Below, piece by piece: positions 5,232 to 52,377 of a stretch of 64,000 nt of DNA. Where the stretch lies: positions 425 to 64,424 of the forward strand of contig CAYGFS010000002.1 in the NCBI GenBank assembly GCA_964349305.1, in the 5' to 3' direction. The position numbers and the translations under genes are program-made. The first letter of the stretch is position 1, and each line of letters opens with the position of its first letter. The notes below the pieces were generated by a model that was given only the letters and a program-made list of their open reading frames with translations, ran no database searches and was not told where the DNA came from. This DNA is from an uncultured Pseudomonadales bacterium. GTDB lineage: Bacteria > Patescibacteriota > Microgenomatia > UBA1400 > UBA12108.

Positions 5232-5721
5232 AGACATGGTGCCAGGCAGCGCCGAAGGTTTGTGGGTTAGATTTGAGGATTTGCTGAATCTCGCCTACGG
5301 TGAACCACTTAAATTCAACTGATTCGTGGTTGAGGATGGGATCCCTGTCGGTGTTAATTTGGTAAACCAAGAATAAGTGATTCTCTTTGCGGCCAATGAC
5401 TTCGCGGTTGTAAATACTTTGACCGACGAACTCAAAATTGTCTGGAGTAAAACCACATTCTTCCTGATACTCGCGGACGAGCGCTGCTGCTGCTGATTCC
5501 CCTGCCCCCACGTGACCACCAATGGGTGAGACAAACTGCCCCGCATCCTGACGGTCACTGGCTTGCCTGACAAAGCAGTACTCCCCCTTTGAGTTGACTA
5601 GTTCGCCAATGACAATGCGGTGCAACAACCCATCGCGATGTGCGACAGATTTGCCGAGTACGCTTATTACTTCATTTTGAGAGTTGATGATGTCAATTTG
5701 CTCGTCGATGGTTTGATTCAT
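5215..5721 (-). CDS. Nudix hydrolase
   Basis: Nudix box GGHVGAGESAAAALVREYQEECGF (GX5EX7REUXEEXGU). Confidence 0.75.
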   Translation of the reverse strand: MNQTIDEQIDIINSQNEVISVLGKSVAHRDGLLHRIVIGELVNSKGEYCFVRQASDRQDAGQFVSPIGGHVGAGESAAAALVREYQEECGFTPDNFEFVGQSIYNREVIGRKENHLFLVYQINTDRDPILNHESVEFKWFTVGEIQQILKSNPQTFGAAWHHVFKNLF

Positions 5722-5730
5722 AAGATTATT

Positions 5731-7516: not shown

Positions 7517-8422
7517 TTACGTTCGCGTTTCTTGAGCCAGATATTCGTTTGGTCCCCAAGAAGTAATTAACTCTTTGGTAATGGGAGTGGCTAGTTTCCA
7601 CAGTGCTTGGTGGATTCCACCCAAGGAGTCGGCGAGATTTTGTGAGCGGATTTTGAGACCCCACACCTCGTCGCCCTTCATGGAGACTATCCAGGTACGA
7701 TTACCTTTGACTCTAGCGGTAATACAAAGTCCTGTGAGTTCGAATGGGAGATAGCGATACTGAACTCTGTCCAAATAATGAGGATTGCGCTCGACTTGGT
7801 AAGACAAGACGTGCTTGGTCCAGGGTGTGATGGGGGTCAAGTTGTATTCGGTTGATTTGGTTTTGGACCAAAGCTTAATCCCCTTGTCGACGCCCTCGTT
7901 CATGGCCTGGCTCCCGGTAGAGTCCATGGGGATCTGGTAATCAAAAACGTAGATGTCTTGATCCACCGAGTCATAATCGAACATGACGTGGTTAGCACCA
8001 TCCATACCAGGGAAAAACTGAAAATCGGCATTGGTTGAATCCTTTAAATATGCTTTTTTCAGATATGGGAGAATTTCGACGATATCTACCTCTTGCTTAA
8101 AGAGACCCTCACGTTTTTGCCAGAGAATGTCCCGCAGGGTACTGGGGTTTTTGGCTCTGACTTTGGTCTGTTGCTTCATGAGCCCGGTAGACGACTCGAG
8201 CTCAACGAGACCTTTGAGCGCGAGGTCGGTGAGGACGGCGTAGACAGTCGTCCTGGCGATCCCGGTTGATTTGGCGATTTTAAAAGGTGACGTTTCACCT
8301 AGCTCGAGCGCTGACTGATAAACTTTAGCTTCGTTTTCGGAAAGACCAAATTCTTGTAAGACTTGAGTAGATCGTTTGGCAAAATCCATATGTTTCCTCT
8401 CCTTGTCGGTTAGTGACGACAC
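7517..8422 (-). CDS. TrmB-like winged-HTH transcriptional regulator (paralog 1 of 5)
   Basis: N-terminal LQEFGLSENEAKVYQSALELGETSPFKIAKSTGIARTTVYAVLTDLALKGLV matches the TrmB HTH pattern. Shares a C-terminal ...ALW... motif with four other paralogs in the window. Confidence 0.6.
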   Translation of the reverse strand: MSSLTDKERKHMDFAKRSTQVLQEFGLSENEAKVYQSALELGETSPFKIAKSTGIARTTVYAVLTDLALKGLVELESSTGLMKQQTKVRAKNPSTLRDILWQKREGLFKQEVDIVEILPYLKKAYLKDSTNADFQFFPGMDGANHVMFDYDSVDQDIYVFDYQIPMDSTGSQAMNEGVDKGIKLWSKTKSTEYNLTPITPWTKHVLSYQVERNPHYLDRVQYRYLPFELTGLCITARVKGNRTWIVSMKGDEVWGLKIRSQNLADSLGGIHQALWKLATPITKELITSWGPNEYLAQETRT

Positions 8423-8423
8423 T

Positions 8424-8492
8424 GTTCGTCACTTTTGACACTGATTGTAGCAGGGGAGTATAGTCCGCGCAAGTTAAGGAGGAGAGAAACTT
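8424..8492. promoter_or_regulatory. divergent promoter region with palindromic candidate operator AGTGACGA-N6-TCGTCACT overlapping a TTGACA-N18-TATAGT promoter
   Basis: Perfect 8-bp inverted repeat at about 8426-8447. Consensus -35/-10 follows. Strong RBS AAGGAGGAG lies before the ATG at 8493. Confidence 0.45.
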
Positions 8493-9026
8493 ATGTCAAT
8501 GCAAAACTTTTGGGAAAAGGGATTATCAGTTCCTTTTCCACAGACAAGGCCTGAGCGAATTAAGGGACCCCTCTTTCATGAAATGTATTGGAAGGATTTG
8601 GATGCCAAAACGGAAAAGGCTGCTTTTGATGAGAGACTAGTTCTCAACGGTGAAGAAAGGAGAATTAAGACGATTGGCTGGCAAGGATCACGAAATGGAT
8701 TCGTGGAGTTACATAAGGAGAAGATTCAAGAGGACATGAATGTGGCGAATGGAACTGTAATCATGGCTAAAGTACTACGTGATAAAACTTCAGAAGTAAA
8801 AAGCGCGCGAGGACTACATCCTCTTGATAGTTTGCCGTTTGTACCATTTGTGTTGGCTATAGCTACTACAGAAACTGGGCTTGAATATCTAGCGCTAAAA
8901 GTTTTCGCCAACTTCACTGCAGAAATGGCACAGTTAACAACTTTACCTGGGGAATCACACTCTACGCTGCTTCCTGACTGGGCGTGGTACTTGGTTGTTA
9001 AACATGAGAGAGTGAATCTAAGTTAG
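8493..9026 (+). CDS. hypothetical protein (177 aa)
   Basis: Good RBS and promoter upstream. No recognisable domain. Confidence 0.45.
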   Translation: MSMQNFWEKGLSVPFPQTRPERIKGPLFHEMYWKDLDAKTEKAAFDERLVLNGEERRIKTIGWQGSRNGFVELHKEKIQEDMNVANGTVIMAKVLRDKTSEVKSARGLHPLDSLPFVPFVLAIATTETGLEYLALKVFANFTAEMAQLTTLPGESHSTLLPDWAWYLVVKHERVNLS

Positions 9027-9036
9027 AATAACTCTC

Positions 9037-10221
9037 ATGAGTTTACCTAAGATTGCGGAGAGAAACACGCGAGTATTTACCTGGGCAGAGGCCGGAAGGA
9101 GTCTCGTGTTTATGATCCCGGTTTGGGTGGCTTTTTTACAATCACGGATTTCTGTCACGCAGATTTCAATCTATGTGGCCGTACTCTTTGCAACACAACT
9201 GGTGCTTGAGCTGCCAACGGGAGCACTGGCTGACCTGATCGGAAGGAAACAAACAATTTTTATCGCTTATCTAGTGGATGCATTACAGTATATCTTTTTT
9301 GCCTTAGCCTGGACTTTCCCACAATTTCTAATACTCGCAATTATATCGGGACTAGCTGAAGCCCTAAGGTCTGGCTCGCTTGAAGCCCTGGTGTATGACT
9401 CGCTCAAGCAAGATGGGAGAGAGAATGATTTCCGTGGTGTCATGGCCAAGCAAGGTCTTAGGTTCCAGGTCGGATTGATTATGGCGACTTTTTTGGGTGG
9501 ATTTTTGTATAACCTATCTCCAGCGCTTCCATTTGTCTTATCGGGCATACCCCTACTAGGTTCGGCGGTTATTTCTATTTACTTTATTGAACCAATAATC
9601 GACTCCGAAAAATTTGGGATGCGTAATTATTTACGACAAATAAAATGGGGAGCGATTGAGGCATTTAAAACCCAGAAGCATCGACTCATATCCCTATACT
9701 ATATTGTGGTGGGCGCGATCTCCTGGATGTGTATGATTTATTTTACCGACTTCGCAATGGTTAATCTCGGATTTGACGCCTCAACTAGAGGGGTTCTGAG
9801 CTCCGGACTCCGCGTTGCGAATGCTCTCTTGATCGCGAAATTCCTGACGAATGAAAAAATATTTAATTTCCGAAGAACAATCATTCTCTTTCCCATTATC
9901 ATGATTGTTGGACTTCTTCCTGGATACTGGCTATATGGGTATTTGGGGGTGCCTTTTGTTGGTCTAGTGATGCTGAGCTCTACGGCGCGGTGGATACTGC
10001 TGGGTAAATACACGAACGAGATATTTTCATCTAAATATCGTGCGACGGCGATCTCGACTTTATCTATGGCAATCGGAGTAATTGTGGTTTTGGGAGTGGT
10101 TGCATCTGGACCGATTATGGAGCGATGGGGGGATGCAAGGCTCGTTTTTAGTTTGCTAGGGATATTGTCGCTCCTAACTGTTGCCCCGCTGGCATATAAA
10201 GTGCTGAAAACTTATGAATAA
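9037..10221 (+). CDS. MFS transporter
   Basis: 12 predicted TM helices. MFS loop motif GALADLIGRKQTI. Confidence 0.7.
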   Translation: MSLPKIAERNTRVFTWAEAGRSLVFMIPVWVAFLQSRISVTQISIYVAVLFATQLVLELPTGALADLIGRKQTIFIAYLVDALQYIFFALAWTFPQFLILAIISGLAEALRSGSLEALVYDSLKQDGRENDFRGVMAKQGLRFQVGLIMATFLGGFLYNLSPALPFVLSGIPLLGSAVISIYFIEPIIDSEKFGMRNYLRQIKWGAIEAFKTQKHRLISLYYIVVGAISWMCMIYFTDFAMVNLGFDASTRGVLSSGLRVANALLIAKFLTNEKIFNFRRTIILFPIIMIVGLLPGYWLYGYLGVPFVGLVMLSSTARWILLGKYTNEIFSSKYRATAISTLSMAIGVIVVLGVVASGPIMERWGDARLVFSLLGILSLLTVAPLAYKVLKTYE

Positions 10222-11395
10222 AAATGTTCGACTGGCGTACGCGCTTACATTCCTCTCGGAGTGCTATTGGCCTTCGGTGGCCGCCCTATTCTTTTACTTG
10301 CGCTACTTTTCATTTACAGAGATTGCTACCCTGTGGGCTATCCAGATGGCGGCAACTAATTTGTTAGAAGTGCCAACGGGAGCTTTTGCCGATATTGTGG
10401 GGAGGAAAATATCGGTTATTTTATCTTTCCTGATTGGAGCGCTTAGTTTGTTTGTTTTCCCATTTACGACAGCGTTTCCCGTATTTGTGGGACTAGAAAT
10501 CTTAAAGGGGTTGGCAAATGCGTTGTACTCGGGGAGCATGGAAGCACTAGTATATGACGGCTTGAAAGAGGGTGGTGGCGAGAAGGAATATCCTCATATT
10601 GTGGCCAATATGGAGACAATTACCTGGGCGTCGTGGGCAATTTCGTCGGTTGGGGGAGGATATCTCTACTATTGGCATTTCCAATCACCCTGGCTGATTC
10701 AGGCTGTGATGTTTGTGGTCGCGACGGTGATGGCGATCTGGCTAGTTGAGCCAAAGATAGACAGTGTTAAGGTGAAAATTGGAGAGATTTTTGTGCAGAA
10801 CAGCCGCGGATTTCGAGAGTTGTTCCAGAACTCTCGCGTCACAAGGATCACGCTGCAACTGGCCGTAATTGGAGCCGGATATGTGATTGCGAGTAATATA
10901 CTGGGGCCGTCGCAGGCCAGAGAGTATGGGTTTGATGCGCGAGGGACGGGCTGGGTGTTTGCGGTAGGGTGTATTTTTTCGGTGATTGCCTCAAGATTTT
11001 TCCCCAAGCTGAAAGGCTATTGGGGCGAGAAGAAGTTGATCATTATTACTACCCTGATGCTACTCATTAGTTTCTTGGCAGCAAAATATGTAGGGCTAGT
11101 GGCAGGAAGCGCGCTCATTATCTTGCGGATAGCCAGCTCGTCGACTTTTCGCAACACCAGAAGCGTGATTGTGAATGAGTGGATCAGCAGTAAAAACAGG
11201 GCTACTGCCCTCTCGACATTAAATTTACTGACTCAGACTCCATACATTTTTCTTTCACCCGTTTTTGGGATGATGATTGACCGGACTAGCCCCAATCAGT
11301 TTGCGTGGTGGTTGGGAGTGGGAACCGTGGCGATGCTGGTGATAATAGAAATCCTGTATGGACGAACTGCACAACGGCAATTACAACATCTTTAA
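10214..11395 (+). CDS. MFS transporter (tandem paralog)
   Basis: 12 predicted TM helices. Motif GAFADIVGRKISV. 8-bp overlap with the upstream MFS gene. Confidence 0.7.
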   Translation: MNKNVRLAYALTFLSECYWPSVAALFFYLRYFSFTEIATLWAIQMAATNLLEVPTGAFADIVGRKISVILSFLIGALSLFVFPFTTAFPVFVGLEILKGLANALYSGSMEALVYDGLKEGGGEKEYPHIVANMETITWASWAISSVGGGYLYYWHFQSPWLIQAVMFVVATVMAIWLVEPKIDSVKVKIGEIFVQNSRGFRELFQNSRVTRITLQLAVIGAGYVIASNILGPSQAREYGFDARGTGWVFAVGCIFSVIASRFFPKLKGYWGEKKLIIITTLMLLISFLAAKYVGLVAGSALIILRIASSSTFRNTRSVIVNEWISSKNRATALSTLNLLTQTPYIFLSPVFGMMIDRTSPNQFAWWLGVGTVAMLVIIEILYGRTAQRQLQHL

Positions 11396-12412
11396 CCCAA
11401 AGGGCTCGAGCGCAAGCTTGAGGCGGAGCATTCTTTCTGGAGTGACTAGGTTAAATTTGATGTTGTGGACTATTTTCCAGATGATGGTGCGGAGGCGGTA
11501 GAGATCGATTTTCTCCTGATAATTGTCTGGTAAAGGCTTAATTGAGGCAAAGCCTTCGATCAACTTTGCTTGACGGGGGTAAATTGTCTTCCAGGTGGGA
11601 GAAGAGGCAATATCTAAGAACGAGTCTCCGGCCACGCACGCCTCCCAATCGTAGGCGGCGACAACCTCAAAGGTTTTGGGGTCGTAGCGTAAATTGTGAT
11701 CAGCAAGGTCGTAGTGGACCAGATTGCCTTCTTTGATCGCAAACAGGTCGTGAGCATCTCTAAAAAGTGACAGTATTTTACTGGCAACGTCTTGGCTGAT
11801 ATATCCAGAAGCTTTGACTGTTTCGATTTGATTTTCAAGTTCAAGGAAAACATAGTCATTAAAATTGCTTGATTCCCCTCGTAACTCGCCCGACCTAATT
11901 GCGGTATCGTCAAAATGGCCGAACCCGGTAAATTTAATGTCAGAAAATTTGGCGATTAGCTGGCCGAGCGAGAATGAATATTTGTCATAATCGTCTTTGG
12001 TACCAGAAAACTCGATCTCTGCATCTAAGCCACCCAATACTTCTTGGATTTGAAAATCAAAAGGGAATAATTTACGTGAAATATCTACGTGGATGATGTC
12101 ATTGGTTGGTAGATCATTTTGCTTAACTAAATCTGAGACGAGTTTTTCTTTTAAAAGCTGGGTTTCTATTTCGGCTGGCCCGAGATTCCCCCTATAAACC
12201 AAATCTTTGTTGTTGGCTAGGTGGACGATATAGGTGATATGGGGTAAACCAACGTTTTTAGGGATTTCCCAGCTGACCACTTCAAGATCTAGGGTTTGCT
12301 TAAAGATGTCTTTAAGTAGATTGGGGTCGAAGATTTGGTATTCTTGTTTTAAGATAGCAACTTCTTCGACTGTTCTATTGGCTCCACCACCGGTGTAATG
12401 ATATTTTTGCAC
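11381..12412 (-). CDS. phosphotransferase-family protein (APH/choline-kinase-like fold)
   Basis: Brenner-like catalytic motif HYDLADHNL and the downstream YDWE motif, as in aminoglycoside phosphotransferase/CotS-like kinases. Confidence 0.45.
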   Translation of the reverse strand: MQKYHYTGGGANRTVEEVAILKQEYQIFDPNLLKDIFKQTLDLEVVSWEIPKNVGLPHITYIVHLANNKDLVYRGNLGPAEIETQLLKEKLVSDLVKQNDLPTNDIIHVDISRKLFPFDFQIQEVLGGLDAEIEFSGTKDDYDKYSFSLGQLIAKFSDIKFTGFGHFDDTAIRSGELRGESSNFNDYVFLELENQIETVKASGYISQDVASKILSLFRDAHDLFAIKEGNLVHYDLADHNLRYDPKTFEVVAAYDWEACVAGDSFLDIASSPTWKTIYPRQAKLIEGFASIKPLPDNYQEKIDLYRLRTIIWKIVHNIKFNLVTPERMLRLKLALEPFGLKML

Positions 12413-12445
12413 TCTAGGATTATAACATTTGAAACATGTAGATAA

Positions 12446-13009
12446 TTAGGTGGTAGAGCGGGCGGCATCGACGAGAGAGCGTACATAGTCAGAGGCACCA
12501 AGGCCTGACTCCAAACCTTTGGATTTTAAGAATTGCTCCTGGGCGCTGGTCAAGAAAAGATTAAAGCGGCGAGAGAGCAAGTCTTTTTGAGCGAGAGCGA
12601 GGAAGGCCTCGATCTGTTCTTCGACCGTCGCGCGATTGTATTTGGCCCCGTGGAAATAGCGATTGTCGATCTTTGCACTAAAATCCTCATGAACAGAGAG
12701 ACATAGCACGTGTTTCTTGGCTTGGATGGCAAGGGTGGCTTCGTGGCCGAGCTGGAAATCCTCCTGGCTCATCTCGATCGCCACGGCGTCGGCTGCGAGG
12801 ATGCCGCGCCGCACGGCTTCGTAGTGGAGTTTTTGAGGATGATTTTTTAATCGTTCCCGGATAGAGGGGGGCACGAGATCTAGGTAATTCCCCTTCTCGG
12901 TTGCCACGATCTCTAGTCCCGATTGAGAATCGAGGACCTTACCTACCAGGTCGTAGTTCTTTTGATAAAGTGATTTGCCGTGGTAACTGGCAGTCCAAAA
13001 TAGTTTCAT
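12446..13009 (-). CDS. hypothetical protein (187 aa)
   Basis: Intact ORF. No motif recognised. Confidence 0.4.
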   Translation of the reverse strand: MKLFWTASYHGKSLYQKNYDLVGKVLDSQSGLEIVATEKGNYLDLVPPSIRERLKNHPQKLHYEAVRRGILAADAVAIEMSQEDFQLGHEATLAIQAKKHVLCLSVHEDFSAKIDNRYFHGAKYNRATVEEQIEAFLALAQKDLLSRRFNLFLTSAQEQFLKSKGLESGLGASDYVRSLVDAARSTT

Positions 13010-13293
13010 TGCACTCCTTATGTATATATGTATACCACGCTATTGCGTATTTATCGATCTAATTGTATATTCTGTCAATATTATGAGTATTGAAGATATG
13101 AGCGCTGACGCCCGTACTATTTTGGATAGAATTTGCTGTCGCGGCTATAGGATGTCACACTTGTTGGCTCCAAGTGTCAACTCTGATCAAGAATCTAAAA
13201 AGAGATTGGGGTGGCTTTTGTGGGTATTTAATTACCCATCTATAGAAAGTATGTTTATACTAGATCAATTAGCAAATATAAAGCGGAGAATAC

Positions 13294-13749
13294 ATGATTA
13301 GATCAACTGGGGTGTGTATAAAGACCAAGGATTTTGCTAGGTCTAGAGCTTTTTACGAAGGATTTGGGTTTAAGCCAAAATTTGAAGTGGGACCGGATAA
13401 AGAGATAAAGGATATAAGTAGCGTGGTGATATATGGATCGGAGACTGGTGGCAACTTTGAGCTGACGGATGGACATGTAGCGATCAAGCCTAGCGTTTTC
13501 CAGGAAACTGTCGCGTCTTCGAAGATATCGCTCATGTTTGAAGTGGACTCACTTGAAGAAATAATGCGTCTGGCAAAGACCATGGGAATCGAACCGGCAG
13601 TGCCAGTAAGACACTATTACTACGGTAACCTCGAAGTGGTTTTCTACGATCCAGACCGGACGAGAGTGGTATTTATCGAGCCGTATACCAAAGAGTTAGC
13701 AGAGAAACTGAGGGCGAGTGAGGAATTTGGAGTGCTGCCAAGTGCTTGA
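13294..13749 (+). CDS. VOC/glyoxalase/bleomycin-resistance family protein
   Basis: N-terminal ...VCIKTKDFARSRAFYEGFGFK... beta-alpha-beta-beta-beta module typical of VOC proteins. Confidence 0.5.
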   Translation: MIRSTGVCIKTKDFARSRAFYEGFGFKPKFEVGPDKEIKDISSVVIYGSETGGNFELTDGHVAIKPSVFQETVASSKISLMFEVDSLEEIMRLAKTMGIEPAVPVRHYYYGNLEVVFYDPDRTRVVFIEPYTKELAEKLRASEEFGVLPSA

Positions 13750-13784
13750 CAGTAGTACTGCTAGTAAGGTATCCTAAAGGTACT

Positions 13785-14054
13785 ATGTTGAGCAATATAA
13801 TGGGGATCAAACAATTTCAGACACAACTACCAATGGTGGCGCGGAACATCAAGGCCATGGGAGGTCATTACCTGGTGACTAATCGGAACGAGCCGGCAAT
13901 GGTCGCGATTTCTTTTGAAGATTATCAGTCCGTGGAAGATATCTTGTTGGAGATGAATTCCCCTGCCCTACAAAAGGACGTTGAAGCAGGACGCCGTGAA
14001 TATGTGGCCGGTAAAACGACAAAGTTGAGTGATTTTTTAATTGAAAATGTATGA
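13785..14054 (+). CDS. type II antitoxin, Phd/YefM family
   Basis: Small protein immediately upstream of, and overlapping by 4 bp, the RelE/ParE toxin. Phd/YefM-like core. The listed ORF starts at 13746; the internal ATG at 13785 is more likely. Confidence 0.6.
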   Translation: MLSNIMGIKQFQTQLPMVARNIKAMGGHYLVTNRNEPAMVAISFEDYQSVEDILLEMNSPALQKDVEAGRREYVAGKTTKLSDFLIENV

Positions 14055-14314
14055 AGGCCTATGAAATCCAGTTGAGTACGAAGGCAAAGAAACAACTAAG
14101 AAAATTGAGTCCCCAAATTCGCAATATAATTGTCCCAGAGATACAAAAATTGGCAACGGCGAGATTCCCCAATCAATTCAAACACCTAACTAAGCATAAA
14201 ACTGCCGATTATCGCCTGAGAATCGGCGACTACAGAGTACTTTATGATGTTTATGACGACGATCAAGTGGTGTTGATTTTGATTGTGGGACACAGGCGAG
14301 ACGTGTATAGATAA
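14051..14314 (+). CDS. type II toxin, RelE/ParE family
   Basis: ...KTADYRLRIGDYRVLYDVYDDDQVVLILIVGHRRDVYR is the canonical RelE/ParE C-terminus. Confidence 0.75.
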   Translation: MKAYEIQLSTKAKKQLRKLSPQIRNIIVPEIQKLATARFPNQFKHLTKHKTADYRLRIGDYRVLYDVYDDDQVVLILIVGHRRDVYR

Positions 14315-14333
14315 GTCTTGCTTGGTGAGAGGG

Positions 14334-15242
14334 TTAGGAGAATACGTGAATGAGCTCTCCCTTGAGCCAGGCTTCGATGTTGTCGATCATCATGTCGTTG
14401 CCAATCTTGCTGGTCACGTCGGTAAAGGCCGAGATGTGGGGCGTGGCTAATACTCTGGGGTGGGAGATGAGTTTTTGATATAAGGGATTAGTTGTATCGC
14501 CGGGCTTGATATCCATGACGTCGTGGGCAACACAGGACAACTGACCAGAATCAAGAGCTTCTAGCATGGCATCAATGTCAACAATGTTACCCACTGTGAC
14601 CGAGATAAAAATGGCACCCCGCTTGAGAGAAGCGAAAAAATCTCGGTTGAGAAGGTTGCGTGAAGTCGGGTTGGAGCTGAGAGAGTCAACAACAACATCG
14701 GCGATTTTAACTGAGCTGGCTAGATTGTCACCTCGTTTGAAATAGGTGACATTCATTTCGAGAGAACGACAGATATCCCCCACTCTCTTGCCGATGCTAC
14801 CGGCGCCAAGGATGGTAATGTTTTTGCCAGCTAAGCCAATGGAGGGGGTGGGAAGTGGGATGGGGAGCGGATCTTGAGTATTGACGTATACTCCTAGCTG
14901 GCGCATTGTAGTCAGGATCATGTAGACAATCCACTCTGAGACGGCATGACGATTGCATCCAGGGCTGTTACAAATAATTAAGTGGTTGTTTTTGACGATA
15001 ACTGGATCTGCAAAGCTACTCACCCCGACAAATGGGACGGTGATGAAGGTGTCGTGAAGGAGGTAGTAATTCTCGCGTAAACCAATGATCCAGGAACAAA
15101 CAACGTCATATCCCTGGCAGCGCTCTAACCACTCTTCTGGACTGGGAATAGTGTCATGATAAGTGATCTCTCCCAGGCTATCTAGGCGATTCTTTTGTGG
15201 TTCTGAGAGTCCCATGGGACAGGTAACAACTATTTTTGTCAT
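14334..15242 (-). CDS. D-isomer-specific 2-hydroxyacid dehydrogenase family protein
   Basis: Rossmann motif ITILGAGSIGKRVG. Catalytic-domain motif ...ATPHISAFT. Confidence 0.7.
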   Translation of the reverse strand: MTKIVVTCPMGLSEPQKNRLDSLGEITYHDTIPSPEEWLERCQGYDVVCSWIIGLRENYYLLHDTFITVPFVGVSSFADPVIVKNNHLIICNSPGCNRHAVSEWIVYMILTTMRQLGVYVNTQDPLPIPLPTPSIGLAGKNITILGAGSIGKRVGDICRSLEMNVTYFKRGDNLASSVKIADVVVDSLSSNPTSRNLLNRDFFASLKRGAIFISVTVGNIVDIDAMLEALDSGQLSCVAHDVMDIKPGDTTNPLYQKLISHPRVLATPHISAFTDVTSKIGNDMMIDNIEAWLKGELIHVFS

Positions 15243-15302
15243 ATGTTATGTAGTTTACTATTATGTTGACTAATGGCAATCTGGTGTCATAATTGTTGAC
15301 AT

Positions 15303-16082
15303 ATGATGACACCTGAGGAATATTTGGCCAATCTTGGCCTGAAAAATAAGCAAATAAAAATATATTTAGATTTGTCATCGCATCCAGAGTCGACAGTGGT
15401 TCAGATACATAAGAGGGTGGGTGAACCTAGGAGCTCTATCTACCTAGAACTTGAGAGAATGATTGAGAAAGGATTGATTATTTCTAAGCGAGTCGGCAAG
15501 TCGAGCTATTACAAAATTACAGATCCTGAGACTCTTAAGCTGGAAATCGAGGATGAAAAAACCAGGATAGATTATCTCTCACAATACCTAGCGGAGTTCC
15601 GCACAGCCATTGAGAAGGTTGATAAACGAGGGGTAATTGGGCGGACGATAAATATTTACAAGGGACAGGCTGGAATTAAACAGATGCTGTGGAACATAAT
15701 ACTATCGGGATCAAAATTGGTGATCGGATATAGCCCAGGACAGCTAGAGCATGTGACGGATCGAAAATTTGCAGAGCGTTGGAGAGCGGAGTTTGTGGCG
15801 AGGGGGATGCACAACCAAATAATCTTTAATCAACCCAAGCCGAAAAGATGGTCGGATATCCCTGAATTTTTGGAAAAGCATGTTCAGGCTAAGACTCTAG
15901 ATGAGCGGAAAATCAAATTTGACCGCTTGGTAGTTATATATGGAGATGTGTTTGCGGTTTGCAGCCTCAAGACTGACGTCGACCAGTATGGAATAGAAAT
16001 ACGAGATGACTTACTTGTCAATTCTTACAAGCAAATTTTTCAGTTTCTTTGGGATCACGTGGCGGAGGAGATGAGGGACTAG
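15303..16082 (+). CDS. TrmB-like wHTH regulator (paralog 2)
   Basis: N-terminal LANLGLKNKQIKIYLDLSSHPESTVVQIHKRVGEPRSSIYLELERMIEKGLI. C-terminal ...QIFQFLWDHVAEE. Inverted repeat GTGTCAT-N13-ATGACAC overlaps its start. Confidence 0.6.
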   Translation: MMTPEEYLANLGLKNKQIKIYLDLSSHPESTVVQIHKRVGEPRSSIYLELERMIEKGLIISKRVGKSSYYKITDPETLKLEIEDEKTRIDYLSQYLAEFRTAIEKVDKRGVIGRTINIYKGQAGIKQMLWNIILSGSKLVIGYSPGQLEHVTDRKFAERWRAEFVARGMHNQIIFNQPKPKRWSDIPEFLEKHVQAKTLDERKIKFDRLVVIYGDVFAVCSLKTDVDQYGIEIRDDLLVNSYKQIFQFLWDHVAEEMRD

Positions 16083-16894
16083 GCTAACTCGGCGGTACCG
16101 TGAGAATCGAGGATTGTGAACTTTTTTGCTCCAGACCAGAGGTATTCGAATAATTGGCGCTGCATGTCGGCCAGTTCCTGGGAGTGGATCTCGACACAAA
16201 AAATCTCATCGCCAGTGTAGCGATACATGCAGTAGACGTCGTTGTAGATCAAAATTTCAAACTGGAAAGGCTTTTCTGCGGGTGGAATGTGGCGGATCTC
16301 CCAGTATTTCTCCACGATCTCGGGGGTGTCCGTCCAGGCATCGAGATGGGTGGTGCTAGTGAGGGTGCGGCTAACAATTTTGTTAGCGACGAACTTGCGT
16401 CGGAAGTCTTCGGCTTCCTTTTTAGACAAGAACGCATTCATGGTCGAGAGCTCGTAAGTGAGGAGCTCGCCCCTGGCTCTCAGTGAGTTGTGAGTGACTT
16501 GCTTGAGCCCCTCGACGCCGTGGTAATAGAGCACCTGGGACTTGGGGGAAGGATCCTTAAGTGATAACCCGGCGAGTTGAGACTTGAGACTGGGTAGGGA
16601 CGATTTTAATTTATCTAGTTCATGCTCGCGGTCGGACAAGAGGAGGTCGAGCTGATCGGGAGCGAGCGCAGTAAATCTAGTTCCCCTCTCCCCTAGTCTA
16701 GTAATCACTAATCCGCGAGAAATGAGATTGTCCAGTAGGCGGTACACTTTGGTGCGTGCAAGTTTGAGATTGCGAGCAATAGAGAGGGCAGTGTCTCCTC
16801 TACCTGACAATATTTCCAGATATATTTTGGCTTCTAGCTCGCTCACGCCAAACTGAGTAAGGAGAGAGATTGTAGTGTCTATTTTTTCGGACAT
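16079..16894 (-). CDS. TrmB-like wHTH regulator (paralog 3)
   Basis: HTH LTQFGVSELEAKIYLEILSGRGDTALSIARNLKLARTKVYRLLDNLISRGLV. The listed ORF runs to 17032, but the ATG at 16894 (MSEKID...) avoids overlap with the well-supported gene at 16945. Confidence 0.6.
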   Translation of the reverse strand: MSEKIDTTISLLTQFGVSELEAKIYLEILSGRGDTALSIARNLKLARTKVYRLLDNLISRGLVITRLGERGTRFTALAPDQLDLLLSDREHELDKLKSSLPSLKSQLAGLSLKDPSPKSQVLYYHGVEGLKQVTHNSLRARGELLTYELSTMNAFLSKKEAEDFRRKFVANKIVSRTLTSTTHLDAWTDTPEIVEKYWEIRHIPPAEKPFQFEILIYNDVYCMYRYTGDEIFCVEIHSQELADMQRQLFEYLWSGAKKFTILDSHGTAELA

Positions 16895-16944
16895 CAGATT
16901 GAATATTAACAGAATTGTGACAGAATGCAAGAAAAAGGAGGAAT

Positions 16945-17514
16945 ATGGAGCGGATTGGAATAAATGGATATCAACTACTATCTGAGGGATATAGCGGAGA
17001 TAATCTAGGGTTGAATAATGATAGCGTTTCATGGGGGAGTGCTCGAATCCCCGTGGTTGATGGTGGCCTTGATACTCCTCCAGATGGTGTTGAGGAGGTG
17101 AGGCTACTTAATACTGTTCATCCAGATGATGGCTGGATGGATGGCGCAACTATAAAACTTAATCACTCAATTCTCCAACGCTTTTTAGAACATGGGAATC
17201 GGACTTATGTAGAAGAACCTCTAAATGAAGGCGGAGTGGCGATGGGAGTGTCACCAGACGGTGTTAGTTATATGTATATCCCAGATCAAACTTCTAGCCT
17301 GAAGACTAGAAAGATTGGGGGGAGCTGGGTGTATGGTGAGGGATGGGTTCACGGATGGATTAATAGGGGGCGAGGAACGCTAAAATACCTAGAGTGGTGT
17401 ATCCCAAAGTATGAACAGGATGGAACAAGTGAAGTCGTTAACGAGGGTGAGGATGTGGGAGCAGTAATGTTTTGGGGGTTGTGGAGAATGTTGAAAAATG
17501 ATTCTGGTAGATAG
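16945..17514 (+). CDS. hypothetical Gly/Trp-rich protein (189 aa)
   Basis: Consensus RBS AAAGGAGGAAT before the ATG. No known domain. Confidence 0.45.
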   Translation: MERIGINGYQLLSEGYSGDNLGLNNDSVSWGSARIPVVDGGLDTPPDGVEEVRLLNTVHPDDGWMDGATIKLNHSILQRFLEHGNRTYVEEPLNEGGVAMGVSPDGVSYMYIPDQTSSLKTRKIGGSWVYGEGWVHGWINRGRGTLKYLEWCIPKYEQDGTSEVVNEGEDVGAVMFWGLWRMLKNDSGR

Positions 17515-17521
17515 GGGGCCG

Positions 17522-17546
17522 AGCCTGCGAGGACAGTCCTCGCAGG
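17522..17546. repeat. perfect palindrome AGCCTGCGAGGACAGTCCTCGCAGG (10-bp stem, 5-nt loop), copy 1
   Basis: Identical 25-mer recurs at 18117-18141. The GAGGACWGTCCTC core recurs at 28619-28636 and 29097-29163. Confidence 0.85.
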
Positions 17547-17610
17547 TTACTCGCAGGTTAAATGTGTTGGTTGGATCTGGGATGGTTGTGGTTGCGAGTC
17601 TTGCCACTTG

Positions 17611-18090
17611 TTAGGAGAGTTTCTTAAGCATCTGCTCGGGTTTGCCCGCGATGTGGATGAGTCCGGTTGGTAGAGCCCCGATTCGTTTATACCAACTCAA
17701 GGGGAAATCGTGGAGGTTTCCGTCAGCAATGCCTTCGAACTCGACTATGCCATATTTCTTTATGGCTGTTTCTACCAGTAATTTGGTCAGGTGGCTGGCA
17801 ATCCCCTTCCTTTGGTGGGTTGGGTGGACAAATAATTCGACTTCATGGATGTGGGGTCCATCGCACCAAGGCTTAATGCTCCCGGCAATTGCACCAACGA
17901 TTTTGTTATCCAGTAGTGCTACGAAGAAAAGGTCGGGTTGGATTTCCCAAAGGTGCGTCAAAAAATCTGTAGCTGCTTTATCTGACCAGTATTCACCGAT
18001 GTCGGCAAGATTAAAGCACTCAGCGTACACATGTCCAACTTCAGCAAGTTGTGATTGTTTAATGATTGAGAATTGTAGTTGATTGGCCAC
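17611..18090 (-). CDS. GNAT family N-acetyltransferase
   Basis: Acetyl-CoA-binding motif ...HQRKGIASHLTKLLVE... (Q/RxxGxG/A). Confidence 0.75.
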   Translation of the reverse strand: MANQLQFSIIKQSQLAEVGHVYAECFNLADIGEYWSDKAATDFLTHLWEIQPDLFFVALLDNKIVGAIAGSIKPWCDGPHIHEVELFVHPTHQRKGIASHLTKLLVETAIKKYGIVEFEGIADGNLHDFPLSWYKRIGALPTGLIHIAGKPEQMLKKLS

Positions 18091-18116
18091 GGAGTGATTA
18101 TAAACCCGTGGGTTTA

Positions 18117-18141
18117 AGCCTGCGAGGACAGTCCTCGCAGG
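18117..18141. repeat. perfect palindrome AGCCTGCGAGGACAGTCCTCGCAGG, copy 2
   Basis: Identical to 17522-17546. Together they bracket the GNAT gene. Confidence 0.85.
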
Positions 18142-18155
18142 CTTCTGTGAATATA

Positions 18156-18572
18156 TTACCTGGCGGCACTGGCCCAGATGGCTTCGAACCAGACCTTGGC
18201 GGACTGGACAATAGAGGGATCTTCTATCAATACGGCGTAGGGATTTGCTGGGTTGAAACTAATGATGGCCATAAAGTCGTCTCCTATGACCAGGTCGGAC
18301 TCGGCGGAGTCGGTTAAATAACGCGCTTGGTTTTTGATTCCGTCTTTCTTTTTCCCATAAGCGCGGTTGCCCGTTGTGTCGGCCACGACCTCGCGCGTTT
18401 TGATCTGGCTAGCGAAGAGTTTGGGCTCGAACTCGTTGTCATACCACTCCCCAATCACGGCTGTGTAGCCAGTAGAGAGACAGACAAAGTCGGCGACTTT
18501 GCCCTGCAGCAATCGTTTATAGACAGGCTGGATGCTGGTAGATCCAGGTAGAACGCTAATGGCGTTGTTCAT
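18156..18572 (-). CDS. stand-alone homolog of the TrmB-like C-terminal domain (no HTH)
   Basis: C-terminus ...RYLTDSAESDLVIGDDFMAIISFNPANPYAVLIEDPSIVQSAKVWFEAIWASAAR aligns with ...RYLPKEILAIPHQMDIYDEVVTFYSW...EIHNPKVAQMQKQLFELAWEKAKR of the adjacent paralog 4. It lacks the N-terminal wHTH. Confidence 0.5.
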   Translation of the reverse strand: MNNAISVLPGSTSIQPVYKRLLQGKVADFVCLSTGYTAVIGEWYDNEFEPKLFASQIKTREVVADTTGNRAYGKKKDGIKNQARYLTDSAESDLVIGDDFMAIISFNPANPYAVLIEDPSIVQSAKVWFEAIWASAAR

Positions 18573-18638
18573 ATAATCTCCTTTGTCCTAATTGTGGACA
18601 ACTAATAATATCTCAGAGTTTACAGCTGATATTAATAT

Positions 18639-19436
18639 GTGTATAATTGGTGTCCAACTGGTGAACATGTGAATAAAAATGACTTAATAATCTACTTGAA
18701 TAAGCTCGGCCTAACCAAGGAGGTAGTAGAGATTTACTTGGATTTACTGGAACACGGGGAGGGTACTCCCCTATCGATATCCAGAAGAACTGGGATAAAT
18801 CGGACCAAGGTATACCGGGAAATCGAGGAGATGGCGAGGGAAAAACTTCTGACCCTGCAAATAGGCGACAACACTACGATAGTCTCCCCTGCCCCGATGG
18901 AGCGGATAGGGGCAATGCTTAAGCAAAAACAGCTCGCAGTGGCGGAGCTGTCCAAAAACTGGAGCGATGTCACCGAGTCTCTGGCTCAAATTCAAGTTGT
19001 GCAGAAGGCCGAAACCAGAGTGAAGTACTACAAAGGCAAAGAGGGAATTGAACAGATGGTGTGGAACGTGCTGAAGGCAAAAGACGAAATAGTGGGCTAT
19101 ACCTTCCGCGATCTGTCGCACTTTGTGGGAGCCAAGTTTATGGGCGAATTTGTAGAGGAATTTAAAAGGCGTAACCTGTTCATGAGGGATATCTATGGTG
19201 ATGAATATCTGGAAAATAAGCCGACCGATAACAACTGGGCGGGTAAAATAAGCTCGCGTTACTTACCAAAAGAAATTCTTGCCATCCCCCACCAGATGGA
19301 TATTTATGACGAGGTAGTGACATTTTATAGCTGGAATGAGGGCGAGGTATGGGGGACAGAGATACACAATCCCAAAGTGGCTCAGATGCAGAAACAGTTG
19401 TTTGAACTGGCGTGGGAGAAGGCAAAAAGGGTTTAG
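18639..19436 (+). CDS. TrmB-like wHTH regulator (paralog 4)
   Basis: HTH LNKLGLTKEVVEIYLDLLEHGEGTPLSISRRTGINRTKVYREIEEMAREKLL. Inverted repeat TTGTCC-N7-GGACAA lies upstream. Confidence 0.6.
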   Translation: MYNWCPTGEHVNKNDLIIYLNKLGLTKEVVEIYLDLLEHGEGTPLSISRRTGINRTKVYREIEEMAREKLLTLQIGDNTTIVSPAPMERIGAMLKQKQLAVAELSKNWSDVTESLAQIQVVQKAETRVKYYKGKEGIEQMVWNVLKAKDEIVGYTFRDLSHFVGAKFMGEFVEEFKRRNLFMRDIYGDEYLENKPTDNNWAGKISSRYLPKEILAIPHQMDIYDEVVTFYSWNEGEVWGTEIHNPKVAQMQKQLFELAWEKAKRV

Positions 19437-19858
19437 CGCTCGTTTTCGTGCTCGCGCAAGGTATTAGTCATAGATTGAGGGGAGTCTAGGAGCCAACTCA
19501 TCGCTTTTTGCACCCTGTCCAAATCTTGTTCCTTAGAATCTATATTTTCCAGGCCTACTAGTTGTAATAAGTAAACATTGGCTGGATAACCAAATGCCAC
19601 TGATGTTTCGAATAATTTGAAGGAAAGTTGCCATGGTGCAACTCCAGTGAAAATATGTGCTCTCACCTTGTCGGGAAAATGTGCTTCTTTAAGCAATTCC
19701 CAGCGCTGCTGTGCATCGAGCGGTCCAACAATTTCGATTACCTGTTTTTCAACGGCAATCCTAATTGCTACTGGTTTGAGGAAATCACTAATAACGATGG
19801 CCTCTTTCGATTCGTCTACTACTTCCTTGCTTTTGGCTTCCTTAAATGTTCTTGTCAT
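19433..19858 (-). CDS. hypothetical protein
   Basis: Intact ORF between two TrmB-like genes. Likely start is MTRTFKEAK at 19858 (the listed ORF extends to 19915). Confidence 0.35.
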   Translation of the reverse strand: MTRTFKEAKSKEVVDESKEAIVISDFLKPVAIRIAVEKQVIEIVGPLDAQQRWELLKEAHFPDKVRAHIFTGVAPWQLSFKLFETSVAFGYPANVYLLQLVGLENIDSKEQDLDRVQKAMSWLLDSPQSMTNTLREHENER

Positions 19859-19917
19859 GCGCGAAATAATACGATATTTACAGAGAGATGTATAATTGTT
19901 GTGTATAATGTGCACAG

Positions 19918-20718
19918 ATGAATAAATTGATTAGTGATTATATTGTAGGACTAGGGTTTAGCCAGGAGGCGGGTAAGCTATACGGCGGCCTGGTAGAAAA
20001 AGGACCGCTGACCATCCTAGAAGCGTCACGGGAGAGTGAGATCGAGCGGACGGCGCTTTACCGGCTAGTTGAGGATTTGACGGCCAAAGGACTGATTGAA
20101 GAGGTCCTGGAGCATAAATCTAGGCGGGTACGGGCGGTGGAACCCGCGAAAGTAAAGCTGCTTGTGGAACAAGAGAAAAAGAGAGTGGGTGAGCTAGAGA
20201 ATAGCTTTACCAGTTTTGAAGCGGCGGTGGGACAAATACCTGATCTAAAGAGTACTCAGGTGCGATACTACCGTGGGACAGCGGGGATTAAACAAATCAT
20301 GTGGAATGAAACCAAAGCTAAGAAGGAGCTCCTCGGCTATACCTATCGCAATATGGAGGAGGTGGCGGGGGTTCCCTTTTTCAAGAGTTGGGTGGCAGAG
20401 ATTGAGAAGAGAGGAATCGTTTCGCGGGACTTGCGGAGCGACACATTTCTCTCCAGTATGGAGGCGCCGGGATTTGAGCGAATACATATTGACAAATCGA
20501 TGTGGCGATACTTGCCAGAAAAGGTGATGTGCCTGAGTCATAATCTGGATATTTATAATGATGTCGTGGCGATCTACTACTGGGAAGAGAATGACGTGTT
20601 TGGCGTAGAGATCCAAAATCAAAAGATGGCGGATACCCAGAGGAGTATTTGGGAGACGATGTGGAAACTAGCAGAAAACTACAAGTTGCCGAGGAAGTAT
20701 CGACTACCTAGGAGATAG
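19918..20718 (+). CDS. TrmB-like wHTH regulator (paralog 5)
   Basis: HTH IVGLGFSQEAGKLYGGLVEKGPLTILEASRESEIERTALYRLVEDLTAKGLIE. C-terminal ...SIWETMWKLAENY. Confidence 0.6.
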   Translation: MNKLISDYIVGLGFSQEAGKLYGGLVEKGPLTILEASRESEIERTALYRLVEDLTAKGLIEEVLEHKSRRVRAVEPAKVKLLVEQEKKRVGELENSFTSFEAAVGQIPDLKSTQVRYYRGTAGIKQIMWNETKAKKELLGYTYRNMEEVAGVPFFKSWVAEIEKRGIVSRDLRSDTFLSSMEAPGFERIHIDKSMWRYLPEKVMCLSHNLDIYNDVVAIYYWEENDVFGVEIQNQKMADTQRSIWETMWKLAENYKLPRKYRLPRR

Positions 20719-21616
20719 GCTCGCTAGCTTGAATTTTGTTCATGGTGTAGACACTGGCTATAACAACTCCAGCGCCAAAGAGGGAAATTATGCCTATCAT
20801 TTCGCCGTAAAAAAAATATCCGACGAATAGTGAAAAGATGTTTTCAGAGAGAAATAATTGGGTCGCAAAAACTTCATCTAGATGTTTAAATGCATAGATG
20901 GTCAAGAGTGGCGCTAGAACATTCATAACCACGCCGATAAAAAGTCCCAAAGAAACTTGCCATGAGAAAAGATTGGAAAGATTCGGAATGGACTCCCCTG
21001 CATAAAGAGCGAGTGCGAAGATAACAACGCTGGCAATGCCCTGAGCAATAACGGTGATTTCGCGAGAATTAAGCTTTTTCTCCATAAGCTTTATGCCGAG
21101 GTACCAGACTGCCTCAAAAAAAGCGGACAAAATAACCCACCAATCACCAACACCGAGCTCTGATAGGGCCGGGATGAACTGTCCGCTACTTAAGACTCCT
21201 ACTCCCCAAATAGACACTAAAAGTAATCCCAAGATGATGTACCGCCATCTCCGCTTGAGGAAAATTACACCTAGGAGATATACAAAAATGGGAACCGTCG
21301 AGAATAAAACCGAAACATTGAGTAGGGTGGTAATCAATGCTCCCTTGGTGATCGCAAAAATCATGAGGCCATAACCAACAATTCCCATGAGTAAAAGTAC
21401 TAACCAATCTTTAATGTTGAGAGCTTTAATATTCCTCCAGCGAATATCTCTGGGAAAGATAATTATGGTTGCTACCATCGCCAGAAAAATACGAATATAA
21501 ACCTGGGTGAAGATTCCAAACGAAGTATCTAACCACCTGGCAGCGACACTCAAAAGACCGTAACCAAGCGATACTCCAATCAGGGCAATAATTGACAGAG
21601 TTCGGCCGGTGAACAT
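20708..21616 (-). CDS. DMT/EamA-family transporter (10 TM)
   Basis: Two EamA-like five-helix halves. Start probably MFTGRTLS at 21616 (the listed ORF extends to 21652). Confidence 0.5.
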   Translation of the reverse strand: MFTGRTLSIIALIGVSLGYGLLSVAARWLDTSFGIFTQVYIRIFLAMVATIIIFPRDIRWRNIKALNIKDWLVLLLMGIVGYGLMIFAITKGALITTLLNVSVLFSTVPIFVYLLGVIFLKRRWRYIILGLLLVSIWGVGVLSSGQFIPALSELGVGDWWVILSAFFEAVWYLGIKLMEKKLNSREITVIAQGIASVVIFALALYAGESIPNLSNLFSWQVSLGLFIGVVMNVLAPLLTIYAFKHLDEVFATQLFLSENIFSLFVGYFFYGEMIGIISLFGAGVVIASVYTMNKIQASEPIS

Positions 21617-21617
21617 A

Positions 21618-21998
21618 TCAACTTCTCTCCCCAAACATGAGATGATAACCATTACAATCCTGGATAGTAAACTCCTGGGAATCGTAGTTGGTGGAATGGA
21701 GGGATTGAACCACTTTTACCATATCTTTAACTCTCCCCCACTCCGAGCGAATGTCGTCAACTTCTAGATATAAAACGAGACTACCTCCCATTTTTACTTT
21801 AGAAAGCTCTGGTATTTCTTTGGCAAAGTCATGTCTGGAGAAGAGCATTATCTCCACATTGCCTCGCTTGATGCGAGCGAAGGTGGGAGCACTAGACTCT
21901 GGAGAAATAAAAACCACCTCAAAACCCAACGTGGTTTTGTACCACGCGAGAGTTTTTGGAAGATCTTCGACGAGTAGTTCTGGAGTAAGAGACAACAT
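21618..21998 (-). CDS. VOC/glyoxalase-family protein
   Basis: Sequence ...DLPKTLAWYKTTLGFEVVF...NGYHLMFGE matches the VOC fold pattern. Confidence 0.55.
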   Translation of the reverse strand: MLSLTPELLVEDLPKTLAWYKTTLGFEVVFISPESSAPTFARIKRGNVEIMLFSRHDFAKEIPELSKVKMGGSLVLYLEVDDIRSEWGRVKDMVKVVQSLHSTNYDSQEFTIQDCNGYHLMFGERS

Positions 21999-43974: not shown

Positions 43975-44022
43975 AGAGTTATTCTACCAGCTGAGATAGG
44001 TCTGGTGTGGTAAAATTGGGGT

Positions 44023-48986: not shown

Positions 48987-49008
48987 GATATGGGAATTTT
49001 AGCACAAA

Positions 49009-49539: not shown

Positions 49540-49550
49540 ATTTAATGTGT

Positions 49551-52376: not shown

Positions 52377-52377
52377 G

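Follow-up and report, generated by a model that had tools for sequence, protein, structure and literature searches.

Five paralogous regulators of the TrmB family (A to E) and a sixth open reading frame (ORF), F, which matches only their C-terminal half, are clustered in a 64,000-nucleotide stretch of contig CAYGFS010000002.1 (hereafter the window), from an uncultured bacterium of the candidate phyla radiation (CPR). We propose that the five regulators form an array of local, self-regulating repressors, each acting on a palindrome of its own, and that D and F constitute a regulated pair within this array, a reading that we regard as reasonably likely. The homology of the proteins, their fold, the conserved palindromes, the covariation of one protein residue with the palindromic half-site and the synteny of D with F are observed directly.

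Almost nothing is known about gene regulation in CPR/Patescibacteria, which cannot be grown alone. Of the transcription factors of archaea ~12% belong to the TrmB family, versus only 0.5% of those of bacteria (PMC9426492), and our literature search brought up no work on such regulators in CPR and hardly any on bacterial TrmB proteins in general. The operators predicted for the five regulators, together with a rule based on a single residue, offer a testable code, and the label 'sugar-specific TrmB', which misleads in this branch of bacteria, is corrected by the analysis. What is new, on computational grounds, is an operator code that can be read off in a family of CPR regulators, evidence for paralogs as insulated local repressors, and a conserved module that joins a regulator to a sensor-only paralog, from a protein family that has no Pfam model.

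In the mechanism we propose, each regulator would bind as a dimer to its own palindrome of ~17-20 bp, placed at the -10 box of that regulator's promoter or shortly after it, within a short divergent intergenic region, and would repress both itself and a cargo gene next to it or divergent from it, which encodes a transporter (for efflux or otherwise) or a small enzyme. The half-sites appear to have diverged (TGTCC, TGTGC, TGTCA, GTGACGA), so that the paralogs should not cross-talk, and release from DNA would presumably be triggered by a small molecule bound at the C-domain. Repression, ligand control and the biochemical role of F are the elements of this scheme that we infer.

Palindromes and recognition helices

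A preliminary description of the region, made from the sequence alone, had listed five ORFs with a TrmB-type helix-turn-helix (HTH) together with a domain-only copy, and all six are indeed present (Table 1). In a PF01978 search A to E scored 37.5-53.8 bits, above the curated gathering cut-off of 25.6, and F showed no HTH. Pairwise BLASTP among the five gave 20-32% identity over ~245-285 residues (E 1e-10 to 1e-46). The case in which similarity would end with the HTH did not arise for the set: the five align over their full length, except for the A-B pair, whose BLASTP match is confined to the HTH. The C-terminal LFE.AW motif of the description also proved real: in every group, F129 and W133 (numbered as in F) are kept at 93-100%. 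The motif forms the last helix of the C-domain and occurs in archaeal TrmBL2 as well. The five paralogs appear to be anciently diverged.

A search for operator palindromes shared by these genes had been suggested. Palindromes are present upstream, and each paralog appears to have its own, conserved type, as seen when operator conservation was compared across ~80 related metagenome loci (designated L001 and onwards below). We rejected a single operator common to all paralogs: the conserved parts are the paralog-specific arms, and the string TAATTGT, mildly over-represented (17 found versus 9.6 expected), is spacer or -10 sequence. Within the 64 kb, the only perfect or near-perfect copy of each operator type is at its own promoter.

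The strongest evidence that the palindromes are cognate sites and that the regulators are autoregulated comes from covariation between a protein residue and the half-site. Among distinct regulators from the ~80 loci, 32 have a Glu immediately ahead of the R-T at the start of the recognition helix, and every one of these is preceded by a TGTGC-type palindrome. The 20 regulators that carry Asn, Ser or Pro at the same residue and have a palindrome of this geometry all show the TGTCC type. The association holds in 52 of 52 cases, with no exception (Fisher p=8e-15, shared ancestry being ignored). On these counts one residue (Glu versus Asn/Ser/Pro) predicts TGTGC versus TGTCC half-sites.

Two D-type candidate operators, O1 (TGTCCTAATTGTGGACA) and O2 (TGTCCAACTGGTGAACA), occupy the region between D and F. 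O1 lies between the -10-like TATTAT of F (18605-18610) and the Shine-Dalgarno sequence of F (18578-18582). The D promoter reads TTTACA-17-TATAAT (18619-18647, 11/12 consensus positions); O2 begins 3 nt beyond its -10 and ends 1 nt before the probable GTG start of D at 18669, the start called in relatives, which gives a protein of 255 aa. In related D-F intergenic regions the five-base arms are conserved and the seven-base spacer varies, as seen for O1 in L003, L005, L007-L010, L018 and L022; O2 is kept in all close relatives, and the distance from O1 to O2 is 64-68 bp. The pattern TGT[CT]C-N7-G[GA]ACA was found in 19 of 23 D-F intergenic regions, including those of pairs with only 31-47% identity to D, for a chance expectation that we estimate at ~0.02 per region.

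Upstream of each of 32 distinct E-type regulators (30-73% identity) stands the sequence TGTG[CT]-N7-GCACA, and in E orthologs this palindrome directly follows a TATAAT or TATACT box and precedes the start codon by 1-3 nt. It is present as a single copy in the window. The A-type candidate, a perfect inverted repeat, is just downstream of the -10-like TACAAT of A (8444-8449, minus strand; a TACAAT or TATACT box in orthologs) and 2 nt upstream of the -35 of a divergent promoter, TTGACA-18-TATAGT (8435-8464, 11/12 consensus positions), which serves the operon starting at 8493. This palindrome is conserved in the A orthologs of L005 and L008 (71-81% identity); it is the only perfect copy in the window, and the other match (2573-2592) has 2 mismatches. 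The B-type candidate overlaps the -10 CATAAT (15288-15293) of a promoter-like match, TTGACT-16-CATAAT, and is one of three matches to TGTC-N9-GACA in the 64 kb, versus 0.62 expected. For C, the promoter is conserved (Table 1), and orthologs with 67-80% identity and conserved upstream sequence were found in L003, L007 and L015.

Start codons bear on where these sites fall. A probably starts at ATG 8389 (290 aa), with a Shine-Dalgarno AAGGAG 9 nt upstream, and its 301-aa form is absent from the protein collection. For C, gene callers use the start at 16894, as did the preliminary description. The C ORF runs 46 codons further upstream, to an ATG at 17032; this extension overlaps both the divergent gene at 16945-17514 and the conserved promoter of C, and is therefore almost certainly not translated.

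Fold of the regulators and the D-F pair

The five regulators are members of the TrmB family and, as far as modelling can tell, have the architecture of TrmBL2: a winged HTH (wHTH), a long dimerisation helix and a C-domain resembling phospholipase D (PLD). The AlphaFold model of E, built on a 37-sequence alignment (predicted local distance difference test score, pLDDT, 92.2), has the wHTH at 3-73 (helices and wing), a 30-residue helix at 76-105 and a single alpha/beta domain at 114-252, after which the chain ends (~253). Its eight top PDB matches are all Pyrococcus TrmBL2 chains (E ~5e-14), at an identity of 18-20%, and the next matches to the C-domain are PLD-fold proteins (Zucchini, FAM83 and the SauUSI nuclease domain). 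The PLD-like domain of the regulators would be catalytically dead, and no Pfam family covers the C-terminal half of the five. TrmB and TrmBL2 share the HTH, the dimerisation helix and the C-domain; an extra C-terminal subdomain that binds the sugar effector is found in TrmB and TrmBL1, not in TrmBL2 (PMC4877046).

Some relatives carry one TrmB wHTH followed by 2 to ~7 tandem PLD-like C-domains (375-1061 aa), and one 278-aa relative has two C-domain copies and no HTH. Repeats of the C-domain are found in P0165, P0169, P0173, P0191, P0193, P0194, P0203, P0211 and P0181. We know of no description of such arrays.

F is itself a C-domain, as the preliminary description had proposed. A hidden Markov model of the five paralogs recovers it with E=1.9e-6, and F is the only further match among all 518 six-frame ORFs of the 64 kb. 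By profile-profile alignment, residues 5-137 of F correspond to residues 115-253 of E, the C-domain in its entirety (hhalign probability 91%, E=9e-7), and the best structural match of its AlphaFold model (pLDDT 91.6) is the TrmBL2 C-domain (Foldseek E=4e-7, TM 0.62-0.70), followed by Zucchini, NucT, F13 and PLD3. F scores above no Pfam family cut-off. An F-profile search of 1.84 billion representative proteins returned 161 matches at E<=1e-3: ~48 are stand-alone proteins of 115-160 aa (E<=1e-13), and the remainder are mainly 240-270-aa regulators, matched at residues ~108-250. The stand-alone C-domain is a family without a Pfam model, comprising ~48 clusters at 50% identity. At least 60 F orthologs (137-139 aa, 65-83% identity) have a dN/dS of ~0.07-0.13, which indicates purifying selection. 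We rejected F as a pseudogene remnant on account of its constant length, its conservation, a dN/dS of ~0.1 and the lack of room for an HTH: only ~66-96 bp separate F from D, too little for a decayed one.

The fold core and an Arg-acidic pair (R60-E/D61) are common to all groups. Besides these, F has a signature of its own (Y18, D28, C31, S33, Y36, E91, D93, S105, P111, D118), at which the regulators carry I/L, Y, Y/F, P/N, Q/N, N and W. R60 and D93 are 100% conserved in F, and C31 and E61 98%. The arrangement E91-x-D93 ... S105 on predicted strands 5-6 resembles the PLD motif HxK(x)4D(x)6GSxN in spacing and predicted strands. At the positions of the catalytic HxK(x)4D motif F has E91, D93 and D98, and the regulators have S/P/N and Q/N/H; no invariant His occurs among 26 close or 42 broad members of the F family. 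The lack of a conserved His led us to reject F as an HKD nuclease or phospholipase.

Downstream of F, between it and a GNAT gene, an 11-bp GC-rich hairpin (GCCTGCGAGGAC-AGT-GTCCTCGCAGGC, 18118-18148) is followed by a second short one, neither with a clear T-run; these hairpins could be a terminator or a regulatory element. With a hairpin after F and a downstream gene that differs among relatives, an F-GNAT operon is not supported, and F is probably monocistronic.

The link between F and D is strict. In loci retrieved with F that had enough sequence, F is always divergent from a D-type regulator; in loci retrieved through a regulator alone, with no regard to F, a divergent F-like neighbour accompanies 14 of 18 D-type members, versus 1 of 31 of the E type and none of 3 of the C type. 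D orthologs of 254-255 aa stand divergent from F in L001 and L003-L010, and the pairing is still seen where F orthologs share only 36-48% identity and D orthologs 31-47%. D-type operators are found at the promoters of both genes. Since F occupies the position that cargo holds at the other paralogs and D-type operators mark both promoters, we favour F as the regulated output of D, possibly with feedback on D. In this role F would act in the cytoplasm on something related to the signal of D, by binding, buffering or modifying it; its distinct polar site suggests that it binds or acts on something itself, and direct pairing of its C-domain with that of D may provide additional feedback. A family locked to one regulator subfamily would represent either a new anti-repressor or ligand-buffer design, or a new small pseudo-PLD effector. 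In L010, the D-type regulator beside F forms a single 631-aa reading frame (4914-6806, plus strand), of which the C-terminal ~330 residues contain, by eye, an APH/choline-kinase-like HGD...N...D motif. It may be a regulator-kinase fusion and a hint at the kind of small molecule involved.

A bolder extension, tentative and in our view rather unlikely to hold in full, is that the D-F pair is a split one-component system and that, in these CPR bacteria, the TrmB-like proteins are the chief family of regulators responding to small molecules, with a simple code that relates one recognition-helix residue to the operator half-site. F would pair in PLD style with the sensor domain of D, giving either a composite ligand site or titration, as a feedback switch found across Microgenomates. 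If so, the site of F would be the Cys/Asp/Glu/Arg set of a stand-alone pseudo-PLD domain.

The valS-rplY island

The window appears to come from a Microgenomates/Woesebacteria-like CPR bacterium: the tRNA synthetase gene at 1916-4168 (valS) encodes a valine-tRNA ligase whose best named relatives are from Candidatus Woesebacteria (76%), Candidatus Microgenomates (77%) and a Patescibacteria group bacterium (63%), and the family of paralog E also includes a Woesebacteria protein. The preliminary description had taken the genome for a highly reduced one, and a CPR-like genome is supported. The five regulators and F all lie in the 18-kb interval between valS and the L25 gene rplY (22587-23261). In L005 the valS and L25 anchors flank a ~9-kb interval with two regulators and F, and L003 has more than 18 kb beyond its L25 gene, containing four regulators and F; regulator number per relative ranges from 2 to 5. 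The interval is, by this comparison, a variable accessory island, which in these reduced genomes gathers transporters and detoxification-type enzymes, and the setting outlined in the preliminary description is borne out. The transporters are one ABC exporter, two MFS and one EamA; the enzymes an APH-like kinase, GNAT, two VOC/glyoxalase, NUDIX, acyltransferase_3 and D-2-hydroxyacid dehydrogenase. The gene content is completed by what is probably a toxin-antitoxin pair and by several proteins that no Pfam family covers (main features in Table 1).

Table 1. Regulators, candidate operators and neighbouring genes in the window
Feature	Position	Strand	Remarks
ABC exporter	5731-7500	-	same strand as A; begins 16 bp downstream of A
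A	7517-8422	-	PF01978 53.8 bits; full-length similarity to C, D, E
A-type candidate operator	8413-8432		GTGACGA-N6-TCGTCAC; perfect inverted repeat
177-aa protein	8493-9026	+	no Pfam family; divergent from A; candidate cargo, as are the two MFS-type genes that follow
MFS-type transporter 1	9037-10221	+	syntenic L003 gene annotated MFS_1
MFS-type transporter 2	10214-11395	+	syntenic L003 gene annotated MFS_1
APH-like gene	11381-12412		
D-2-hydroxyacid dehydrogenase	14334-15242	-	divergent from B
B-type candidate operator	15285-15301		TGTCA-TAATTGT-TGACA; ends 1 nt before B ATG
B	15303-16082	+	PF01978 46.2 bits; full-length similarity to C, D, E
C	16079-16894	-	PF01978 46.0 bits; convergent with B, 4-bp overlap
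C promoter (predicted)	16903-16930		TTGCAT-N16-TAATAT; conserved; 8 nt upstream of C ATG
Gene divergent from C	16945-17514		
F	18156-18572	-	138 aa; PLD-like C-terminal domain only
O1, D-type candidate operator	18584-18600		TGTCC-TAATTGT-GGACA
D	18639-19436	+	PF01978 38.0 bits; regulator partnered with F
O2, D-type candidate operator	18651-18667		TGTCC-AACTGGT-GAACA
141-aa protein	19433-19858	-	no Pfam family; divergent from E; neighbour at this spot varies among E orthologs
E-type candidate operator	19900-19916		TGTGT-ATAATGT-GCACA; ends 1 nt before E ATG, just after TATAAT 19891-19896
E	19918-20718	+	PF01978 37.5 bits
EamA-type transporter	20708-21652		convergent with E

EamA transporters recur as candidate cargo beside the close E and C types, and A has MFS and ABC transporters as neighbours. 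More distant E-type regulators (Glu helix, TGTGC) adjoin a divergent family of ~150 aa in L022, L029, L043, L047 and L048, and the same partner is found in L053, L057, L064, L068 and L072. By eye, this family looks like a pyridoxamine-5'-phosphate oxidase (PNPOx, a split-barrel flavoprotein), and it has no member in the window. E-type regulators and this family would make a second conserved regulator-cargo module.

Further observations concern the island and the rest of the window. In the middle of the island, two overlapping small ORFs (13746-14314, plus strand; 102 and 87 aa) resemble a type II antitoxin-toxin pair, the second being RelE/ParE-like by eye; among relatives, a BrnT/CopG pair is found at another position (L003, 8358-8961). 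An anti-phage defence system was rejected after a PADLOC search, in which the HTH weakly matched the wHTH part of Csa3/CasR (E>=3e-5) and F and the neighbours without a known family gave no match. No Rfam match was found anywhere in the window. Elsewhere, a 1202-aa TraG/VirB4-like P-loop ATPase (34250-37858, minus strand) is split by an intein that carries a homing-endonuclease domain of the LAGLIDADG type (Pfam Intein_splicing, LAGLIDADG_3 and P-loop_TraG), and four large ORFs at 41095-52433 (959, 1134, 520 and 960 aa) match no Pfam family at E<=1e-5. On the plus strand, all 2-kb bins of 1-64000 show a positive GC skew (0.09-0.32), which is independent of gene orientation and keeps its sign across dnaA (31415-32770); the replication origin therefore lies either away from dnaA or outside the window.

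Competing explanations and known systems

Several points weigh against an array of local, ligand-controlled repressors. Its support comes entirely from comparative sequence analysis, and TrmBL2, the precedent, acts in chromatin without sequence specificity and offers no example of local repression under ligand control. For the B operator, no close B ortholog was found among the relatives' loci examined, and the C operator is uncertain, its candidate TGTCC-N8-AGACA (16876-16893) overlapping the start codon. Operator counts cover 64 kb of a ~1-Mb genome, which leaves room for distal targets of any paralog. Sigma-70-like promoter matches in the region are not enriched (24 found versus 22.7 expected in shuffled sequence), so that promoter and operator positions are plausible as positional context only. 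Finally, D28, C31, S33, E91, D93 and D118 of F differ from the I/V, Y, Y/F, P/N, Q and N of D-type regulators, and a ligand pocket shared by the two is therefore not directly supported.

The preliminary description had called the five regulators sugar-sensor-type and suggested a nutrient or host-signal module. They do have a TrmB-type wHTH, their best NCBIfam matches are the TrmB/TrmBL1 equivalogs (NF040851, NF047390, NF047392), and one close homolog is auto-annotated 'sugar-specific transcriptional regulator TrmB'. These equivalog matches, however, cover the HTH only and reach 12-28 bits versus cut-offs of 500-650, Regulator_TrmB (PF11495) reported no match in the five at E<=1, and the model ends after the PLD-like domain, as in TrmBL2, without the extra subdomain that TrmB/TrmBL1 need (PMC4877046). 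The sugar label is thus baseless. The regulators measure 255-290 aa, versus ~340 aa for sugar-sensing TrmB/TrmBL1. The Thermococcales glycolytic motif (TGM) is likewise not present in the window, where its operator TATCAC-N5-GTGATA finds 2 matches with 2 mismatches (1.6 expected), none at these promoters. No sugar transporter or glycolytic gene is nearby, the neighbours being MFS, ABC and EamA exporters, an APH-like kinase, GNAT, VOC and NUDIX. We consider sugar sensing very improbable, and give slightly less credence still to the five acting as nucleoid or chromatin proteins that coat DNA non-specifically. That idea has in its favour that the best structural match, identical in domain order, is TrmBL2, a chromatin protein of high abundance that also represses globally (PMC4877046, PMC9426492). 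It fits poorly with five divergent paralogs whose number varies from 2 to 5 among relatives, with specific conserved palindromes that covary with a recognition-helix residue, with the location of the regulators in a variable accessory island, and with an identity to TrmBL2 as low as noted above.

A more serious competitor concerns F, which might be an anti-repressor or, as the preliminary description suggested, a decoy, and would pair through its PLD-like domain with the C-domain of D and alter or abolish DNA binding by D. With D in turn expected to repress F, the outcome would be a feedback switch of the double-negative kind. The homology of F extends over the entire C-domain of the regulators, its link to the D subfamily is strict and specific, and F-profile scores are higher for the C-domains of F-partnered regulators than for non-partnered ones (medians of 25.8 and 18.2 bits, p=0.002). 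PLD-fold domains normally act as pairs, and the action of SinI on SinR provides a precedent, with the HTH-less demi-Lrp proteins known from archaea as a further analogy. The relatives with 2 to ~7 C-domains in one chain, and the one with two C-domains and no HTH, point the same way; as a Rosetta-stone argument they are suggestive only, for the fusions exist and the extra domains lack the F signature. On the other side, an F that regulated D alone would leave the D-F module without an output, no other D-type operator being present in the 64 kb, and the polar, acidic and Cys signature of F resembles a ligand or catalytic site more than a copied dimer interface. We judge the anti-repressor role unlikely as the main function of F, and retain F as the output of D.

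Known systems resemble the array and its D-F module in part. TrmBL2 of Thermococcales (PDB 5BOX, 5BPD, 5BPI, 5BQT) has the same extended wHTH, long dimerisation helix and PLD-like C-domain, lacks a sugar-binding subdomain, is the best Foldseek match both for the full-length model (E=5e-14) and for F, and shares the terminal F..xW..A helix motif. It differs in being a single, highly conserved and abundant protein that binds DNA non-specifically as a tetramer, whereas a bacterium here has divergent paralogs with specific candidate palindromes; nor has a stand-alone C-domain partner been described for TrmBL2. TrmB, TrmBL1 and halophilic TrmB share the PF01978 wHTH, the dimerisation helix, the PLD-like middle domain and palindromic operators at promoters, and differ by the TGM motif and by neighbouring genes, which are not sugar-related here. 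The fold of the C-domain and of F is that of the PLD superfamily (the HKD enzymes Nuc, Zucchini and PLD3) and of pseudo-PLDs (FAM83, MITD1); F departs from the HKD enzymes by having neither a conserved His or Lys at the motif positions nor any invariant His.

For the D-F pair the parallels are SinI/SinR, demi-FFRP/Lrp and TipAS/TipAL, in which a small homolog of the oligomerisation or sensor domain of a regulator is encoded beside the regulator or, for TipAS, within its gene. SinI, demi-FFRP and TipAS act by heteromerisation or ligand soaking. F is unlike them in being PLD-like, in having a separate, divergent gene whose promoter carries operators of the regulator, and in having its own polar site. 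It shares with SinI/SinR a small HTH-less homolog of the non-DNA-binding domain of a repressor, kept beside that repressor with conserved adjacency. F does not fit the TipAS/TipAL pattern, in which an internal start in the gene of the regulator itself yields a sensor-only form that binds the same ligand: it is a separate gene on the opposite strand, with conserved pocket residues that differ from those of D. TetR and MarR local repressors have an unrelated sensor domain and another HTH family, and ligand control, which we propose here conditionally, is a further difference; in their presumed mode of action the five regulators would nevertheless be like them, as autoregulated dimers on a palindrome over divergent promoters beside a transporter or small enzyme, with distinct operators for distinct paralogs.

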